From a phage, in the sequence record PZ445439.1: a stretch of 64,000 nucleotides of DNA; one strand, written 5' to 3'. Below the pieces are notes generated by a model. It worked only from the letters and a program-made list of their open reading frames with translations, ran no database searches and was not told where the DNA came from. Each line of letters opens with the position of its first letter. The first letter of the stretch is position 1. The position numbers and the translations under genes are program-made. Below, piece by piece: positions 7,811-17,677 of the stretch.

Positions 7811-8281
7811 TTAATCATGTTTCCACACCCCATCGGTATTTGACCAAAGTCGCTGATTATCTGATCCTCGCCACAGCTTTTTAGTCGGAAGATTTTTCTC
7901 ATACTTCCCATCAATAATAACATCAACATATTTAAGCATTTCTAGTTGTTTAATATCTTCAAACTTATATCCTGTCCACAACCAAATGCTTTTATTGGGA
8001 TAAAGATTTTTTACTGTTTGAACAATGCAATGAATAACATCTCGGTTATCAGGATAGAGAGGGTCTCCTCCAGTTATAGTCAATCCTTCTATATAATCAT
8101 TATTCAAACATTCAATTAATTGTTCTAGCGTTTCACCGGTGAATGGAATACCATTTCTAGCATTCCATGTTGATTTATTATAACACCCTTCACATTTATG
8201 CAAACATCCAGTAACAAAAAGAACGGTCCTGCACCCAGGACCATTAACAAAATCACAAGGATAAATTCTATCGTAATTCAT
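7811..8281 (-). CDS. nrdG: anaerobic ribonucleotide reductase activating protein (radical SAM)
   Basis: 156 aa; CxxxCxxC motif CLHKCEGC; adjacent to nrdD. Confidence 0.9.
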   Translation of the reverse strand: MNYDRIYPCDFVNGPGCRTVLFVTGCLHKCEGCYNKSTWNARNGIPFTGETLEQLIECLNNDYIEGLTITGGDPLYPDNRDVIHCIVQTVKNLYPNKSIWLWTGYKFEDIKQLEMLKYVDVIIDGKYEKNLPTKKLWRGSDNQRLWSNTDGVWKHD

Positions 8282-10095
8282 TGATGCTTAACCCTATGCA
8301 TGATTTCTTTATTTTTGCCGAGATTAAATCCGCGTTCATTCGGATTTCCCAAATAGCCGCATGTTCTTCTTATGGTATTCATCTTTTTAGGATCAGTTTC
8401 TCCACAAATAGAACAAACAAATCCGTTTTCAGTAGGAGTCATTTCATGGGTACTTCCACACGTAAAACATTTATCTACTGGCATGTTAACGCCAAAATAA
8501 TCTAAATGCTGTGCAGCATAATCCCATACGGCCTCAAGACCTTTTAGGTTGTTTTTCATATCAGGAAGTTCAACATAAGAAATGTGACCACCTGTCGCAA
8601 TGAAATGATATGGTGCTTCACGAGAAATTTTTTCAAACGGAGTAATATTTTCTTCTACTGAAACGTGGAAACTGTTAGTGTACCATCCTTTATCAGTAAC
8701 ATCCTTTACACTTCCATATTTTTCAGTATCAAGTTTACAGAAGCGATAACAAAGGTTTTCAGCGGGGGTAGAATACAAGCTAAAAGCAAAACCGGTTCTT
8801 TCAGTCCACTGCTTAAGACGAGCATTCATTTTAGATAAAATTTCTTGTCCAATATCACGACCGACAAGAATATTCAATTCGTGAATACCAATGTATCCTA
8901 GGGACACTGAACTTCTACCGTTTTTAAATAACTCAATTATATCATCATCCGGTTTAAGACGAACCCCGAATGCACCTTCTTGGTAAAGAATAGGAGCAAC
9001 AGTCGCTTTAACTCCTTTTAAAGAACTAATTCTACACATCAAAGCTTCAAAACACAAATCCATTCGCTCATTGAATAATTCGGCAAATTTCTGTTCATTG
9101 AACTGTGTTCCAATATAAGAATCTAACGCAATGCGTGGAAGATTCAGCGTTACAACACCAAGATTATTACGTCCATCAAGAATTTCATTACCAGTCGAAT
9201 CTTTCCATACGCTCAAGAAACTACGGCAACCCATCGGAGAAACAGGAATAGATGAACCGGTGATAGCTTTATTGTTTTTAGCTGAAATAATATCAGGATA
9301 CATCCTTTTGCTTGCGCACTCTAGAGCAAGCTGCTTAATATCATAGTTCGGATCGTCTTTATAAAGATTAACGCCTTCTTCAACAAACATAACAAGCTTA
9401 GGGAAAATAGGAGTTATCCCATCACGACCGAGACCTTTAATACGATTTTTCAGAATTGCTTTCTGAATCATTCGTTCAGTCCAGTCAGTTCCCGTACCAA
9501 ATGTAATTGTTACAAAAGGCGTTTGTCCATTTGAACTAAAGAGAGTATTTACTTCATATTCATAAGCTTGGAATGCATCGTATACGTCTTTTTCTGTTTT
9601 AGATTGGGCATAATTCAACGCATCAGCAATTTGCCATTTTTCTGCATCCTCGATATGTTTTGCATAGGTGCGTTTAACATAAGGAGAAAGTACTTTATCT
9701 ACATTCGCAAAAGTCGTTCCGCCATATTGATGAGAAGCAACTTGTGCAGTAATTTGCGCCATAATTGCAGTAGCAACACCGATTGATTTAGGTGTTTCAA
9801 TCTGCGCATTACCGAGCTTAAATCCGTTCTCAAGCATTCCTTTTAAATCTACTAAACAGCAATTAGTAAATGGAAGAGCAGGGGAATAATCAATATCATG
9901 GAAATGAATAATTCCGCTTTCATGCGCTTTCATAATAAAAGACGGGACCATATTTTTGGCAATGTGTTTAGACACAATACCAGCCATAAGGTCCCGTTGA
10001 GTTGGAAAAACACGAGAATCTTTATTAGCATTCTCGTTTAAAAGGTCTTTATTAGTTTTATGAATCAATCCTTCAATTTCTTTTTCAATTGTCAT
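8278..10095 (-). CDS. nrdD: anaerobic ribonucleoside-triphosphate reductase
   Basis: 605 aa; C-terminal Cys cluster and glycyl-radical motif RRTCGYLG; contiguous ORF without intron. Confidence 0.92.
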   Translation of the reverse strand: MTIEKEIEGLIHKTNKDLLNENANKDSRVFPTQRDLMAGIVSKHIAKNMVPSFIMKAHESGIIHFHDIDYSPALPFTNCCLVDLKGMLENGFKLGNAQIETPKSIGVATAIMAQITAQVASHQYGGTTFANVDKVLSPYVKRTYAKHIEDAEKWQIADALNYAQSKTEKDVYDAFQAYEYEVNTLFSSNGQTPFVTITFGTGTDWTERMIQKAILKNRIKGLGRDGITPIFPKLVMFVEEGVNLYKDDPNYDIKQLALECASKRMYPDIISAKNNKAITGSSIPVSPMGCRSFLSVWKDSTGNEILDGRNNLGVVTLNLPRIALDSYIGTQFNEQKFAELFNERMDLCFEALMCRISSLKGVKATVAPILYQEGAFGVRLKPDDDIIELFKNGRSSVSLGYIGIHELNILVGRDIGQEILSKMNARLKQWTERTGFAFSLYSTPAENLCYRFCKLDTEKYGSVKDVTDKGWYTNSFHVSVEENITPFEKISREAPYHFIATGGHISYVELPDMKNNLKGLEAVWDYAAQHLDYFGVNMPVDKCFTCGSTHEMTPTENGFVCSICGETDPKKMNTIRRTCGYLGNPNERGFNLGKNKEIMHRVKHQ

Positions 10096-11184: not shown

Positions 11185-11505
11185 TTATAGCGTAATCCAT
11201 TCTCGTACTGTCTGAGTTACTACACGTTCACGGGGCTCGACTAGTTCAACAGTCGGAACTGCATAATACCAGTCAGAATGATAAGAACCTGATCGAGATT
11301 CATTTACCGCTACATGTACATTATGTTTTGGACTAAAGTAAACGCACTGACGATATTGGCATTTACCATCTTGCACCCAATCTTCTATTTCGACAGGTTT
11401 AAGATAATCCGAAAAATCGAAATCATAATTTTCTGAAAATGCATCGTGGTCTTCAATAATTTCACTCAGAACTGCATCAACATCTAATTTATTTTCAATA
11501 GTCAT
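11185..11505 (-). CDS. hypothetical protein
   Basis: 106 aa acidic ORF. Confidence 0.4.
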   Translation of the reverse strand: MTIENKLDVDAVLSEIIEDHDAFSENYDFDFSDYLKPVEIEDWVQDGKCQYRQCVYFSPKHNVHVAVNESRSGSYHSDWYYAVPTVELVEPRERVVTQTVREWITL

Positions 11506-11904: not shown

Positions 11905-12164
11905 TTAAAGTATTCCCGCAATTGGTCAAATCCACCAATATGACTTCCATCAGGAGCAAATACCTGAGGCATCGTCAAGCCGATTTGAGTATCACGACCT
12001 AGTTTCGTCAGAAGCTCAGCAATTTTCTCATCATCAAAAACACCTTTTTCCGGCATAATGTTGATAAATTCAAACGGCTGCTTCTTCACGGTCAAAAGAC
12101 GTTTTGCATTATCGCAATACACACATTTATGGATGTTGCTATCATAACCATATACTTTAAACAT
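11901..12164 (-). CDS. nrdC: thioredoxin/glutaredoxin (T4 thioredoxin)
   Basis: 87 aa; active site CVYC; same length as T4 NrdC. Confidence 0.85.
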
Positions 12165-12423
12165 AATATTCCTTAATTCCTAGTACTTGTTTAAAAGTCT
12201 CGTCGTAATCAAGACTTTGGCCCGTTTGTTCTTTATGTTTGTATATAATATCACTTACTTCTGATAGCATATTTTTATATGAACGAGTTAAAGCAGATTT
12301 AAGCACGCTGTATCTATCAGGAAATTTACCATGTTCATTATAATAAGCTATTGCTAATTCACGGACTGCCTTTTCAGCAGCCTCCATATATTCTTTACGC
12401 TTGGTCATTTTCTTCTCGGTCAA
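12157..12423 (-). CDS. hypothetical protein
   Basis: 88 aa ORF. Confidence 0.4.
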
Positions 12424-12712
12424 ATCGGTGTTTACAATGGCGACATTTATAACGAAGATTACTATTCTGCCAATGAACTAATTGTACCTGTTCAGTGCCG
12501 CACTTTGGGCAATTAGGAATATTCTTAGAAGCTCTTTCACGTCGTTCAACCATGGCCATAATAGCATCCCATGCTGGAGGTTTAAAATCTAAATCGTCGC
12601 AACCATGAATCTTTCCACGCATTTCCATATCATCTTCCTCACCAGCCATAATAATTTTAATTAAACTGGAATTACTTGAAGCTGCGATGTCTTCTAATAA
12701 ACGCTTTTTCAT
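12395..12712 (-). CDS. hypothetical zinc-ribbon protein
   Basis: 105 aa; CPKC...CRHC motif. Confidence 0.4.
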
Positions 12713-13638
12713 TTCAATACCTCGATGGCATTACGTAAACCATTTGCTTTGGCGGTTAAAGCCTTAAGAACTTTAGTATGCTCTTCAATTTGTTTTTCAA
12801 CTTCAGCCAAACGTACATTGAGATATTCACGTTCTTCGCTCAGATTATCAACCTTTTCTACTTTAGGTTCTTTTATAACTGACTTATATGTATTAGGGTT
12901 CTTCAGTTTAATTAGAATGCGTGAACTATATAACATTGAACCATTATCTTCGGTTTCGTCATACATTTCTACTACGTCCATGATTTTTAACATCATGCGA
13001 AGTTTATAAGACAACGAACGAATAGTTTTGTTGTGCTTATTAATTTCTTTAGCTGTCATGATGCCGAGATTACGTGAGTAATAATAAGGAACCTGGATAT
13101 TAATTAATACTGATGAACCACCTGGCTTGTGTGTTACTTCATCAGCAATAACCCAGTCCTTAACATGAACTGTATTTGTACGATCATCGCCCGCGGTAAA
13201 TAGTTTACGAGCATGCTTAAAAAGCATATTCACTTGGTCATTGAATTGACAAGCAAATTTATCAGCAAATTTAGTTTCAGGAATGGTAGATAACCAATCA
13301 GCCAAATGGGTCTTTTTAACATCATTAACAATAGTAAATTCAACCAAATCGGTTATAGATGTCTCAGATTTAATGAAGCTCGGCTTCATAAAGTTTTTAA
13401 TGTTCTCATGAGCTACAGTAGAAGATAACATACGAGAACGTTTAAACCATTCAAGCAAATTTCCTAACGAATGAGAATAAGCATTCTGAGTATCTTTACA
13501 GATATGATTTTCCTGTCCAACATATTGAAGGAAATCACGAAGAATATTATTAACTACTGCTCTGTGTCCTATCTGATAATTGCGATGTTTAGTAATAAGA
13601 CTGTTAAAATAATCAATATAATGTTTACGAGTTTTCAT
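12709..13638 (-). CDS. hypothetical protein with C-terminal coiled coil (paralogue family member 1)
   Basis: 309 aa; N-terminus MKTRKHYIDYFNSLI; C-terminal heptad-repeat segment. Confidence 0.5.
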   Translation of the reverse strand: MKTRKHYIDYFNSLITKHRNYQIGHRAVVNNILRDFLQYVGQENHICKDTQNAYSHSLGNLLEWFKRSRMLSSTVAHENIKNFMKPSFIKSETSITDLVEFTIVNDVKKTHLADWLSTIPETKFADKFACQFNDQVNMLFKHARKLFTAGDDRTNTVHVKDWVIADEVTHKPGGSSVLINIQVPYYYSRNLGIMTAKEINKHNKTIRSLSYKLRMMLKIMDVVEMYDETEDNGSMLYSSRILIKLKNPNTYKSVIKEPKVEKVDNLSEEREYLNVRLAEVEKQIEEHTKVLKALTAKANGLRNAIEVLK

Positions 13639-13692
13639 ATTCTTCTCACTTAGTTAATGATTTATGCTCCAAGCCATCCTTGGCTTTAAATT

Positions 13693-14694
13693 TTACTTAA
13701 TTAACTGTAAAGCTTGTTCAAGACGATCAAGACGATTAACAGATTCTTCCCAAATCCTTTTAGCCTGTTCATATTCTTTCTGCGCTTTATTAGAAATTTC
13801 TAGAACTTCTTTATAAGCTTTTTCTAGTGCAATAACTTCTGGACGAATTTCTACCGGTTCGGGTGAATCATCAAGACATTCCATTAGTTCCTCAAGAGTA
13901 GTTTCTTCTTTAGGAGTATTCACAATTTCCTCGCATTTTTGTTGATAAATTTCTTTATCAGTCGGTGAGTACGCGCATTTCACTTCACGAAGGCTAATTA
14001 TAATTTTATATCCTTCCCAACCACATATATTTTTGAAAGGATACGTATGAATACTTTTTACAGTTTCCATACAGCCCAAAGCCGCCTCTAACTGATGGGT
14101 TATAGTACTAGCAATTGAGAAAAATTTATTAATATTCTTTTGGTTAACTTCCGGTGTAAAAAATCCATAATTCACAAAAATAGCTACTTTATTTTTATCA
14201 AGCTCATATTCTTTTACGATAATCATATCAGAAGCTAAAGGATGAATTTGACGATAATCACCATAACATAATTTAGAAGCTGATTTTAAAATTTGTCCTT
14301 TAAAAAGTCTGAAATTACTAATCCAACGACGAGTAAAAATATTCTCAGGGTCTTCTTTATTATTAAGATGATAAGAATTAACATCACCGAACCAATTATA
14401 TCCTACTACATCTTTGGTTCGTTTAATTTCTTTCCCAAATTTACCAAAAATATCCCGATTAACCAAATATGAAAGAAGACGAGACCCTTTAAAGGTTTCC
14501 TTAATATCATCTTTATCTACACGGCTAGAAATTTTACAAACTTCATGAATAAATTTACTTGAAGAAACTATACTTGCATCAATACTATTGAGCCATTGAT
14601 TGATAATAGAAAGAACACCGTGATGACTAGACATGGGTTTAACTTTATCATCAATAACGCTATTGAATGATTTGATATATTCGTTACGAGTCAT
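13693..14694 (-). CDS. hypothetical protein with C-terminal coiled coil (paralogue family member 2)
   Basis: ATG at 14694 with GAGGAG RBS; MTRNEYIKSFNSVI N-terminus resembles neighbours. Confidence 0.5.
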   Translation of the reverse strand: MTRNEYIKSFNSVIDDKVKPMSSHHGVLSIINQWLNSIDASIVSSSKFIHEVCKISSRVDKDDIKETFKGSRLLSYLVNRDIFGKFGKEIKRTKDVVGYNWFGDVNSYHLNNKEDPENIFTRRWISNFRLFKGQILKSASKLCYGDYRQIHPLASDMIIVKEYELDKNKVAIFVNYGFFTPEVNQKNINKFFSIASTITHQLEAALGCMETVKSIHTYPFKNICGWEGYKIIISLREVKCAYSPTDKEIYQQKCEEIVNTPKEETTLEELMECLDDSPEPVEIRPEVIALEKAYKEVLEISNKAQKEYEQAKRIWEESVNRLDRLEQALQLIK

Positions 14695-14751
14695 AATAAT
14701 CTCCTCAGTAGAAAGTAAGAACATTATACCACATCCTTGTGGCAAAGTAAA

Positions 14752-15780
14752 CTAGTTCAGTGCATTTAGTGCATTGTTCAGTTTAGAACGTTGTTTTGTC
14801 AGATTTTGAACCCTTGACTGTGCTTGTTCTAACACCTTTTCAGCTTCTAGCATTTCATTAGTTGCTTTAACAAGTTCATCATCTACTGCTTTAAGAGACT
14901 TCTCAATCGCATCGGCGTGCCATTTTTCAACAGGTTTAAGACTCGGATTTTCAACAGGAAGAAAATTCACTTTATTGAATTTCCATGCATCATTATTACC
15001 TGAACTATACATCCAAAATTTAGGATCGTTTGATAAGTAATTAGATAAATTTAAGTTATAGTTATCTTGCACTTCCTGTTTTTTCTCTTGCGGGACTTCG
15101 TCCTTTCTCAAATAATCATATTTAAATGAAACGACCATATCAAGTTCATATGTTGTCGTATCTAATTTAAATCGTTCGAAATGCTGCGAAATCTTAGACT
15201 GAACAGCGGAAACAACATCCATATACTTAAATGCTTCTGTCAATTGTGATTTAAGGCATTCGCAAATTGAAAGAGAATTTTTTGTATTAGGTTTAAAGCT
15301 AATTCGTGCAGTTCTGTTATTTTCTTTTAATGGTCTTACTTCCATCTGAAGAGTATAACCATCAAATTTCAGATTCTTTAAGTTAATGTCAGAGCCTTTT
15401 AATCGACTAGCAGTAGACAAAATTTGCTTTAATTGTCTACGGAACAGAGCAATAAATCTCCATTCAATACGATAATGATTTGGATTGAAAAATCCAGATG
15501 ATAAATCGACCTTACTTTGACCAACGCCTTGAACAAATAGAGGATTTTTATAATCAATAGTTTTACAGAAATCAACGAGTTGCTCGCGAGCAGTCATTTG
15601 TGTAATATACCCTGCTTTACTAAAATGACGTAACCATTCACTGCTATTCAAATGTTTAAAGGCATGAATGGAACAATTAACTTTACCAAGGTCTAAATTA
15701 TTTTCGCACAAAAATGTCATAGCATCACGAGTATAACTGGCATTACGAACAATATCTTCAATTTGAGAACGAGTTTTCAT
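14752..15780 (-). CDS. hypothetical protein with C-terminal coiled coil (paralogue family member 3)
   Basis: 342 aa; MKTRSQIEDI N-terminus; C-terminal coiled coil. Confidence 0.5.
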   Translation of the reverse strand: MKTRSQIEDIVRNASYTRDAMTFLCENNLDLGKVNCSIHAFKHLNSSEWLRHFSKAGYITQMTAREQLVDFCKTIDYKNPLFVQGVGQSKVDLSSGFFNPNHYRIEWRFIALFRRQLKQILSTASRLKGSDINLKNLKFDGYTLQMEVRPLKENNRTARISFKPNTKNSLSICECLKSQLTEAFKYMDVVSAVQSKISQHFERFKLDTTTYELDMVVSFKYDYLRKDEVPQEKKQEVQDNYNLNLSNYLSNDPKFWMYSSGNNDAWKFNKVNFLPVENPSLKPVEKWHADAIEKSLKAVDDELVKATNEMLEAEKVLEQAQSRVQNLTKQRSKLNNALNALN

Positions 15781-15788
15781 AGTATTCC

Positions 15789-16700
15789 TTAAGATTTAAG
15801 TAAATCAACAATTTTAATTAACTTTTCACGCTCAGATTTAGCTTTACTACTCAGTCCAGATAGTCTAAAAATTTCATCATCATATTGTTGAATAGAAATA
15901 TTCAGCTCTTCAATCTGCTTATTAAAATAATCAATTTGTTCAGAATGTTTTTCGTTACTACGAACTGGTACAGGTTTTGTAGGCAATTCAATTGAACTGG
16001 ATTCATCCGGGCGATAAATTAAAATACAACTTGAACCAATTGGACATTTTGCACCAGATGAATATTCTAATGTTCCAGATTCTTTTAAAACTTCAAAAGC
16101 TAAACAGAGATGATGGCCCATATTAACATAATCCGTAGAGCGAGCTCTGACGTAATAATCATCTCCACGAATACTAAATTTAAAACATTTAAGGTCTTCT
16201 GTATTATTAGTTTTAAAAATCATTTGTTTATCTAGACCTTTAGCCAATCGAGCGCCTAACGCTAATAATCGTCGTTGATTTTCCCATAAATCCGCAATCA
16301 TTTGGTCGAATGATAATTTCGGCATTAGTCGGCCATAAAGGTCGTATCCTTTATTATAATTGCGAAGGATTTCACTCGCGTTAATACGAGACAATGCTCC
16401 AATTTTATTAAGGGCTTTCATAATGCGATTAGATAAACTCATTCCAGATCCGTTTGTTCGCTGTAAATGTTTTTCTAATCCAAACCCAATATCAACTTTA
16501 AACTTATCTAAAATTTCAGCATGAACATCTCTGTCAATAACATTCAAATCCAAAGTTGAGTTAAATCTATGAAAAAATTTATCTGGCTCTCCACGACGAA
16601 ATACAGTCCATTCATTCATCATTTTTTTATTAACTAAAGATTTAATTACTGCATTGACATTATTAATTACTACTGACATATTTTCCTCACTCAATTTCAA
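15789..16700 (-). CDS. hypothetical protein with C-terminal coiled coil (paralogue family member 4, most diverged)
   Basis: 303 aa; C-terminal heptad segment. Confidence 0.45.
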   Translation of the reverse strand: MKLSEENMSVVINNVNAVIKSLVNKKMMNEWTVFRRGEPDKFFHRFNSTLDLNVIDRDVHAEILDKFKVDIGFGLEKHLQRTNGSGMSLSNRIMKALNKIGALSRINASEILRNYNKGYDLYGRLMPKLSFDQMIADLWENQRRLLALGARLAKGLDKQMIFKTNNTEDLKCFKFSIRGDDYYVRARSTDYVNMGHHLCLAFEVLKESGTLEYSSGAKCPIGSSCILIYRPDESSSIELPTKPVPVRSNEKHSEQIDYFNKQIEELNISIQQYDDEIFRLSGLSSKAKSEREKLIKIVDLLKS

Positions 16701-17149: not shown

Positions 17150-17677
17150 TTATGCGAGTACCGTCTTTAACCGTTCTTCAAACTTCCGAAGAGTATTTTG
17201 GCGTTCAGCTCTTTGCTTTTTGTAAGTTTCAATACGCTCTGAAATGAGAGTGTATCGTTCATTCACTGATTCTTTCATAAAATCAGGAATTTCACGAGAA
17301 GCTTTAATCTCGTCAAATTTATCAATAACAGCTTGCTCTTCAGCAATTAAGTTATCATACATTAAAATATCTTTCTTGATGAACTCAATATCTTCTTGAG
17401 TTACACGAGATAATTTAGATGCTTTATCCTTTTTGTACTGTTCGTTAGTATCACGAGACCAATGTAATATACGATTTTTATTCGTATTCTTGTAAATTTC
17501 TACAATACCAATCTCATCAATAATAACGATCCAATTCCAACGGGATTTGTAAATTTGTCCTCCATCAACAGTGATTTCACCTCCGATTGAGATGTCATTA
17601 AAGAACTTGCTTTGTGCTTCAGATTTAAATTTACCATCGTTGTAATTTACCAAGTTGAAAATATCTTTAGCATTCAT
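17150..17677 (-). CDS. hypothetical protein
   Basis: ATG at 17677 preceded by GGAGG RBS and early promoter; track ORF start lies inside promoter. Confidence 0.5.
   Translation of the reverse strand: MNAKDIFNLVNYNDGKFKSEAQSKFFNDISIGGEITVDGGQIYKSRWNWIVIIDEIGIVEIYKNTNKNRILHWSRDTNEQYKKDKASKLSRVTQEDIEFIKKDILMYDNLIAEEQAVIDKFDEIKASREIPDFMKESVNERYTLISERIETYKKQRAERQNTLRKFEERLKTVLA

Follow-up and report, generated by a model that had tools for sequence, protein, structure and literature searches.

The 64,000-nucleotide stretch of phage DNA analysed here (sequence record PZ445439.1; hereafter, the window) carries on its minus strand four consecutive genes, which an original prediction had described as diverged paralogues of 309, about 333, 342, and 303 amino acids with C-terminal coiled coils. 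The 3,992-base region that contains them shares 97% identity with Escherichia phage JoYop and 94-95% with hundreds of Tequatrovirus genomes, and its gene order agrees with that of nrdC.3 to nrdC.6 in T4, a reference phage in which about half of the genes are still without a function. On this similarity and gene order, we identify the window as Tequatrovirus DNA and the four genes as orthologues of T4 nrdC.3, nrdC.4, nrdC.5, and nrdC.6. They are flanked by nrdD, endonuclease VII (gp49), thioredoxin NrdC, and the remainder of the nrdC.1-nrdC.11 series.

The nrdC.3 orthologue (12709..13638; 309 amino acids) is a member of PHROG 1435, as is the nrdC.4 orthologue (13693..14694; 333 amino acids from its ATG), whose homologues carry PF26897; both span positions 1-334 of the PHROG profile (E = 1.8e-113 and 2e-166, respectively). 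The nrdC.4 start at ATG 14694 has a GAGGAG ribosome-binding site upstream and yields the N-terminus MTRNEY, as in relatives. The nrdC.5 orthologue (14752..15780; 342 amino acids) belongs to PHROG 2351 and to the Pfam family DUF7235 (PF23882), which it matches over its full length at 395 bits (gathering cut-off 30; E = 3.4e-118), and it is syntenic with T4 nrdC.5 and 92% identical to it over residues 1-333. By contrast, nrdC.3, nrdC.4, and nrdC.6 gave no match to the PF23882 model at E <= 1, and so fall outside that Pfam family as defined. For the nrdC.6 orthologue (15789..16679; PHROG 2257, with homologues carrying PF26899), the open frame extends from 15789 to 16700 and reaches the 303 amino acids first proposed only if the upstream TTG at 16700 serves as the start. 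Because ATG 16679 is preceded by the ribosome-binding site GAGGAAA and homologues in databases have 296 amino acids and begin MSVVIN, we consider the longer version probably too long and the product likely to be 296 amino acids; the other three lengths stand. Each of the four proteins matches its PHROG family over the full length (E = 1e-113 to 1e-166), and Pfam and PHROGs distribute the four genes over three distinct families, none with a known function.

All four proteins end in the heptad-type segment that had been noticed at the outset. Over their last 42 residues, 83-92% of a and d positions are hydrophobic, compared with 17-27% of other positions (p <= 0.007, from 2000 shuffles of each C-terminal segment), and in every case the top-scoring 35-residue heptad window starts within the C-terminal 50-60 residues. 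On the minus strand, these segments correspond to the last 42 codons of nrdC.3 (12712..12837; 0.83 at a/d versus 0.27 elsewhere, p = 0.007) and of nrdC.4 (13696..13821; 0.83 versus 0.23, p = 0.0025), to a long helix at residues 283-342 of nrdC.5 (14755..14934; 0.92 versus 0.17, p < 0.0005), and to a helical hairpin at residues 243-296 of nrdC.6 (15792..15953; 0.83 versus 0.20, p = 0.0025). AlphaFold2 likewise predicts C-terminal helices for the two proteins that were modelled—a single helix of 59 residues in nrdC.5 (283-341) and two helices forming a hairpin in nrdC.6 (243-272 and 278-295)—in each case preceded by a low-confidence linker.

The N-terminal signature proposed for the first three proteins was also found in all of them, as (K)TRxE(Y/I), with T3 and R4 invariant in 116 aligned nrdC.5, nrdC.4, and nrdC.3 sequences; the single-copy Marfavirus relatives carry it as well. 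The middle regions had been described as divergent, and this proved true of residues ~20-60 and 160-280, including the disordered linker, but not of the core at residues ~60-160, which in a multi-family alignment holds the strongest cross-family motifs and is the part most conserved between paralogues. The motifs are colinear: first, the N-terminal TR motif; second, a helix pair with the pattern K-S-R-x-L-S ... A ... L ... F-G; third, a helix with F ... L ... A-(S/R)-(K/R)-L ... G-D; fourth, two beta hairpins flanking an A-L ... D ... V-E helix; and last, P-(V/I)-E ahead of the coil, followed by a K-L ... A ... L-K end. The four proteins would share one domain plan, in which an N-terminal helical region leads into a beta-beta-alpha-beta-beta module, a disordered linker, and the C-terminal coiled coil.

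Whether such a plan reflects common descent is poorly answered by pairwise BLASTP, in which only nrdC.3 and nrdC.4 were significantly similar (24% identity over 230 residues, E = 8.5e-7); the method is too insensitive for its silence on the other pairs to be evidence against paralogy. Profile-profile comparison with hhalign was more informative, particularly when it included a bridge cluster comprised of single-copy relatives from Marfavirus, Kanagawavirus, and unclassified viral-contig loci. At full length, nrdC.3 aligned with nrdC.4 (98% probability, E = 7e-13), the bridge cluster with nrdC.6 (95%, E = 2e-8), nrdC.5 (95%, E = 3e-8), and nrdC.4 (79%, E = 2e-5), and nrdC.4 with nrdC.5 (58%, E = 1e-4, over 229 colinear columns). 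When the proteins were trimmed by their last 70 residues, the bridge-nrdC.5 comparison fell below 20%, and the other links persisted: nrdC.3-nrdC.4 (E = 5.6e-14), bridge-nrdC.6 (90%, E = 1.8e-6), bridge-nrdC.4 (82%, E = 1.1e-5), and nrdC.4-nrdC.5 (61%, E = 8.4e-5). The nrdC.4-nrdC.5 alignments extend over 160-229 colinear columns overall. Similarity is thus found outside the C-terminal helix, and it stands above 88 control comparisons, in which the families of nrdC.7, nrdC.8, nrdC.10, and nrdC.11 were set against every cluster with a best result of E = 0.014 at 3% probability. The best control value belongs to nrdC.8, which has a similar coiled-coil tail and which we considered and rejected as a fifth member; since this coiled-coil-tailed control found no match, the resemblance among the family's tails goes beyond what coiled coils share in general.

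The single-copy relatives tie the families together in a second way, in that the Tequatrovirus paralogue profile they match varies with lineage. The Marfavirus protein F48 gp057 (P0233 in our set) matches the nrdC.3, nrdC.4, and nrdC.5 hidden Markov models (HMMs), and Kanagawavirus IME523 gp085 matches the nrdC.6 HMM; the two are related to each other (tblastn E = 2e-9). A combined nrdC.3+nrdC.4 profile searched against 1.84 billion representative proteins returned 11 matches, all phage-type, among which this same bridge protein from F48 was the sole useful one; the family is thus a narrow one. We also looked for DNA repeats between the paralogues, as a sign of recent gene conversion, and found none longer than ~30 nt; the duplications are therefore old.

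Structure models point in the same direction. The AlphaFold2 model of nrdC.6 was built from an alignment of nrdC.6 homologues only (predicted local distance difference test score, pLDDT, 79.5), and that of nrdC.5 from nrdC.5, nrdC.4, and nrdC.3 sequences (pLDDT 72). Across the globular part, the predicted secondary structures of the two agree at 0.62, compared with 0.40 +/- 0.05 (maximum 0.51) in circular-shift controls. In Foldseek searches, both models match the same four BFVD proteins of ~300-335 amino acids (E = 4e-4 to 8e-8), from Klebsiella phage Mineola, Pectobacterium phage PM2, Acinetobacter phage Acj61, and Citrobacter phage Merlin. Taken together, profile comparison, colinear motifs, synteny, secondary structure, and common Foldseek targets support the description of the four as diverged paralogues, and we consider it very probable that nrdC.3, nrdC.4, nrdC.5, and nrdC.6 all share one ancestor, with nrdC.6 the least secure member of the family.

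Searches of Pfam, NCBIfam, PADLOC, and PDB sequences and folds returned no significant match to an enzyme, defence protein, or known fold beyond families of the DUF type, bearing out the expectation that these proteins have no recognisable catalytic motif. Residues 30-86 of nrdC.3 show a weak likeness to the N-terminal SAM-like DNA-binding domain of XerC/XerD-type recombinases (NCBIfam E = 0.002-0.03, Pfam E = 0.09), with scores against PF02899, XerC, and XerD of 13-17 bits that lie under the cut-offs of 22 (Pfam) and 279-335 (NCBIfam). When 62 sequences (60 nrdC.4 homologues plus window nrdC.4 and nrdC.3) were scanned with Pfam, neither integrase SAM-like nor PHL hits came up again; this set covers the nrdC.4 family and, of nrdC.3, the window allele alone, but neither the nrdC.5 nor the nrdC.6 family. 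PHL, integrase SAM-like, and BrxC each appeared below threshold in one protein and were dismissed, as were a sub-threshold match to designed helical repeats and DUF3905, which recurs in 25 of the 62 nrdC.4-family sequences, always below threshold. Among the top 50 Foldseek hits of the nrdC.5 model, about 8 are tail terminator or tail completion proteins (E = 0.009-0.08; template modelling score, TM, normalised to the target 0.29-0.41); these non-significant hits lie in the beta-beta-alpha-beta-beta module, residues ~140-220. They may hint at mimicry of a structural protein, or they may reflect no more than the fortuitous resemblance of a small alpha/beta module.

To examine the distribution of the family, we surveyed 40 loci from diverse T4-like phages anchored on the conserved nrdC.11, using iterative HMM searches of their open reading frames (ORFs), together with annotated genomes. 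Across the 40 loci, family members were found only between nrdC.11 and nrdC, with four copies in Tequatrovirus, one in most other T4-like genera, and none in four loci. Three copies occur in phages of the Mosig/Gapriver/Dhaka type (nrdC.6, nrdC.5, and nrdC.4) and, without nrdC.4, in a variant Tequatrovirus-like lineage with nrdC.11 77-79% identical (L020, 8799-11822; L021, 13298-16321), where the members are a divergent nrdC.6 of 331 amino acids, an nrdC.5-like gene of 319 amino acids that forms its own cluster, and an nrdC.3 of the class ~75% identical to the window. In a collection of phage genomes, records of nrdC.3, nrdC.4, nrdC.5, and nrdC.6 numbered 653, 553, 548, and 741, respectively, all in T4-like enterobacterial phages. 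The conserved position and variable copy number are consistent with tandem duplication.

The paralogues also evolve differently from the genes around them. In comparisons with four related phages, the ratio of nonsynonymous to synonymous divergence (dN/dS) was 0.13-0.40 for nrdC.3, nrdC.4, and nrdC.5 and 0.06-0.15 for nrdC.6, versus 0.00-0.13 for nrdD, gp49, nrdC, and nrdC.8-nrdC.11, and the dN of the four genes was 3-10 times that of enzyme and housekeeping-type neighbours. The diversifying selection originally suggested was not demonstrated by these gene-wide values of 0.06-0.40, which lie above those of the neighbours but well below 1.

Divergence between phages was large in nrdC.3, where the window and T4 alleles share only 61% identity, against 97-100% for the genes on either side. 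When phage records are compared with the window, their nrdC.3 identities cluster at ~89-98%, 73-78%, and 60-62%. In sliding windows, the proportion of synonymous differences (pS) is near-saturated in codons 31-270 (0.54-0.73) and low at the ends (0.16-0.29 in codons 1-30 and 271-310); a comparison with the 75% class gave a different mosaic pattern. Because synonymous divergence is low at the ends and near-saturated between them, the sequence pattern is that of an old allele cassette exchanged by recombination through conserved ends, rather than of rapid point mutation.

Several members have decayed or been rearranged. In T4 strain 147, nrdC.4 is frameshifted (L007, 7944-8943), and in a Tequatrovirus contig (L013, 15489-16542) it is split into ORFs of 200 and 158 amino acids. 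The T4 reference nrdC.6 aligns in two pieces. These interrupted nrdC.4 copies and the two-piece T4 nrdC.6 may be pseudogenes or sequencing errors. A 167,058-base contig (P0119) carries an in-frame fusion from mid-nrdC.5 to nrdC.3 residues ~137-309, with loss of nrdC.4; because the junction (FNKVN/MLFKHARKLF) joins non-homologous positions, the event looks more like a deletion at microhomology than like unequal crossing-over. Shigella phage Sf25 encodes an nrdC.6 of 378 amino acids (P0121) with an internal tandem duplication of ~80 residues that runs from the beta module through the linker into the first part of the coil, and one phage record keeps only the nrdC.3 tail.

Function is best documented for nrdC.5. 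An evolved T4 clone with large deletions failed to plate on E. coli ECOR17, deletion of host dsr1 restored plating, and T4 nrdC.5 enabled the deletion clone to plate again on cells with Dsr1 (Srikant et al. eLife 2022, PMC9391042). The window gene is, by the identity and synteny given above, an orthologue of this anti-Dsr1 gene. In the searchable literature, we found no work on nrdC.3-nrdC.6, DUF7235, or an 'anti-Dsr1' factor beyond Srikant 2022. A 2026 preprint reports that Dsr1 senses through a tetratricopeptide repeat (TPR) domain, a homologue of the one in Avs7, and that major capsid proteins are what these sensors recognise. The adjoining genes have defence targets of their own: gp49.2 inhibits OLD in T6, nrdC.1 inhibits Septu in T4 and Bas37, and bas37_0203, the nrdC.8 orthologue according to the Bas37 gene table, inhibits Druantia III, with a log2 fold change (log2FC) of -5.8 on strain CFE303. 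Their window orthologues are all on the minus strand—gp49.2 at 11185-11505 (anti-OLD in a close relative), nrdC.1 at 12157-12423 (anti-Septu in close relatives), and nrdC.8 at 17150-17677 (175 amino acids, ending in a coiled coil and unrelated to nrdC.3-nrdC.6). Since gp49.2, nrdC.1, nrdC.8, and nrdC.5 each counter a defence system, the genes from 49 to nrdC.8 together behave as an anti-defence island. The early suggestion that the four paralogues are anti-defence factors is therefore borne out for one member, T4 nrdC.5, which sits among tested inhibitors, and makes the other three candidates. In transposon data, nrdC.3-nrdC.6 are non-essential on K-12 in both T4 and Bas37.

We propose, with a probability of roughly 60%, that nrdC.3-nrdC.6 are old tandem duplicates of one T4-like accessory gene whose products act as early, coiled-coil-oligomerised, non-enzymatic inhibitors of host defence proteins. 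Under this proposal, the four proteins would be produced early in infection, each would oligomerise through its coiled coil, and the diverged globular domain would bind and neutralise a host immune protein. For nrdC.5, the genetic evidence in T4 points to the Dsr1 sirtuin NADase as the target system; by analogy with DSAD1 and DSR2, the protein may occupy or lock the Dsr1 TPR sensor ahead of the late trigger. Other variants, or other defence proteins, would be the targets of the remaining three paralogues, and such separate targets would in turn explain the copy-number expansion, fast protein evolution, and allele swapping.

A number of results weigh against this proposal. With respect to ancestry, the bridge-nrdC.5 link comes mainly from the last 70 residues (tail alone, E = 3.5e-10), hhalign gives no direct significant link between nrdC.5 and nrdC.6 or between nrdC.3 and nrdC.6, and nrdC.6 is tied to the others only via the bridge cluster and structure. 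The nrdC.3+nrdC.4 profile, when run on 1.84 billion proteins, recovered no member of the nrdC.5 or nrdC.6 families at E <= 0.001. Both structure models are of moderate confidence, the alignment behind the nrdC.5 model took in nrdC.4 and nrdC.3 sequences, and TM-scores to the common Foldseek targets are low (0.20-0.48); low scores are expected given the flexible linker, and the Foldseek evidence is accordingly supporting, not decisive. With respect to function, experimental data exist for nrdC.5 alone among the four, and gene-wide positive selection was not found in any of them in the comparisons with four related phages (dN/dS < 1). Transposon disruption of the nrdC.3-nrdC.6 orthologues in Bas37 caused no significant change in fitness on CFT073, CFE299, or CFE303 (log2FC -0.73 to +0.68, adjusted p >= 0.8); these nulls fit target-specific accessory genes or redundancy among paralogues.

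A more specific version, which we offer tentatively and consider unlikely as it stands, is that the four paralogues form a diversified sensor-blocking set, acting early and before the trigger, with each protein tuned to a different variant of TPR or solenoid sensor (Dsr1, Avs7, and related proteins). If so, the related coiled coils may permit mixed oligomers that broaden specificity, and swapping of the central nrdC.3 cassette would be a way to change target specificity.

It is also conceivable, albeit with a clearly lower probability, that the proteins have a housekeeping or regulatory role—DNA binding, or modulation of transcription, replication, or nucleotide metabolism—and that the Dsr1 rescue is indirect. 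The XerC/XerD-like stretch of nrdC.3 and the location of the genes among nucleotide-metabolism genes (nrdD, nrdC) would suit such a role, and no physical interaction between nrdC.5 and Dsr1 is reported in the Dsr1/DSR2 literature examined. However, the recombinase-like scores are far under their cut-offs (17 bits versus 279), and neither these nor PHL hits recur among the 62 sequences scanned. None of the four genes is needed on K-12 or on those uropathogenic isolates that were checked; restriction to T4-like phages, variable copy number, and frequent decay are atypical of core functions; and the adjoining genes are direct defence inhibitors.

On the question of descent, one alternative is that only nrdC.3 and nrdC.4 form a family and that nrdC.5 and/or nrdC.6 converged on the combination of a globular domain and a coiled coil, in a region that collects accessory genes. 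This would agree with the pairwise BLAST result, with the three families maintained by Pfam and PHROGs, with the failure of the large HMM search to reach nrdC.5 and nrdC.6 families, and with the coiled-coil tail of the unrelated neighbour nrdC.8, which indicates that such tails recur here. We nonetheless regard it as decidedly improbable: without the coiled coil, E-values are still 1.8e-6 (bridge-nrdC.6), 1.1e-5 (bridge-nrdC.4), and 8e-5 (nrdC.4-nrdC.5), versus 0.014 or above in controls, the colinear motifs occupy the same predicted helices, the nrdC.5 and nrdC.6 models have Foldseek targets in common, and a single-copy gene at the same position matches either the nrdC.4/nrdC.5 or the nrdC.6 profiles depending on lineage. 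Finally, the idea that the paralogues are decoys mimicking a phage structural protein seen by host sensors, which draws on the repeated weak tail-protein matches of the nrdC.5 model and on the recognition of structural proteins by the Dsr1 and DSR2 sensors, is highly improbable, as those matches are non-significant and confined to a small alpha/beta module, the nrdC.6 model has none, and the reported Dsr1 trigger is a capsid rather than a tail protein.

The anti-defence role of nrdC.5 is already published and each gene already has a place in a DUF or PHROG family. New here, and absent from the searchable literature, are the link among all four genes, the single-copy ancestor across T4-like genera, the common motifs, and the mosaicism of nrdC.3. 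In the literature searched, nrdC.5 is the only phage gene reported to overcome Dsr1, a poorly understood sirtuin defence, and the proposed family link yields three candidates (nrdC.3, nrdC.4, and nrdC.6) for further counter-defence activities while suggesting redundancy as a reason why single-gene screens come up blank. The conserved motifs and domain plan can guide mutagenesis and modelling of complexes. More generally, the case would illustrate how an anti-defence gene expands via tandem duplication and allele exchange within an anti-defence island.

Three further features of the window deserve mention. Upstream of nrdC.4, on the minus strand, lies a promoter-like site (14723..14751) with GTTTAC, a 17-nt spacer, and TG-n-TATAAT; it matches 10 of 12 consensus positions and includes an extended -10 element, is a consensus match only, and belongs to a class of hits present in the region at chance number. 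The site resembles the T4 early-promoter consensus. The window nrdD (8278-10095, minus strand) is an uninterrupted ORF of 605 amino acids, whereas the T4 match is split by ~1 kb, which is the intron carrying I-TevII; the window phage therefore lacks that intron and its homing endonuclease. GC skew flips near 44 kb of the window, from negative to positive, consistent with a switch in the predominant direction of transcription.

Comparison with known systems places the four genes in context. Like nrdC.3-nrdC.6, the genes gp49.2, nrdC.1, and nrdC.8 are small, non-essential, and domain-less members of the same early-gene block (gene 49 to nrdC.11), but they are unrelated in sequence, and nrdC.8, compared directly, reached no better than the control value given above. 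DSAD1, the inhibitor of DSR2 from an SPbeta-type phage, resembles nrdC.5 in having no enzymatic motifs and in countering a SIR2-NADase defence, and the sensor of DSR2 recognises a late structural protein, as reported for that of Dsr1. DSAD1 serves here as a mechanistic analogy; the two differ in host system (DSR2 versus Dsr1) and in phage lineage, and no sequence relationship was found, as no inhibitor of a sirtuin defence was among the matches of PDB-wide profile searches with the nrdC.3/nrdC.4, nrdC.5, and nrdC.6 alignments. The closest known counterpart is T4 NrdC.5 (DUF7235), which counters Dsr1 of E. coli ECOR17 and of which the window gene at 14752-15780 is the 92% identical orthologue at the same position; window nrdC.3, nrdC.4, and nrdC.6 share its architecture and, as profile and structural evidence suggests, its ancestry, but they do not score against PF23882, and the Dsr1 rescue reported for nrdC.5 is that of the T4 allele. 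The families PHROG 1435/PF26897, PHROG 2257/PF26899, and PHROG 2351, which the databases keep separate, would on this evidence be joined as one superfamily.

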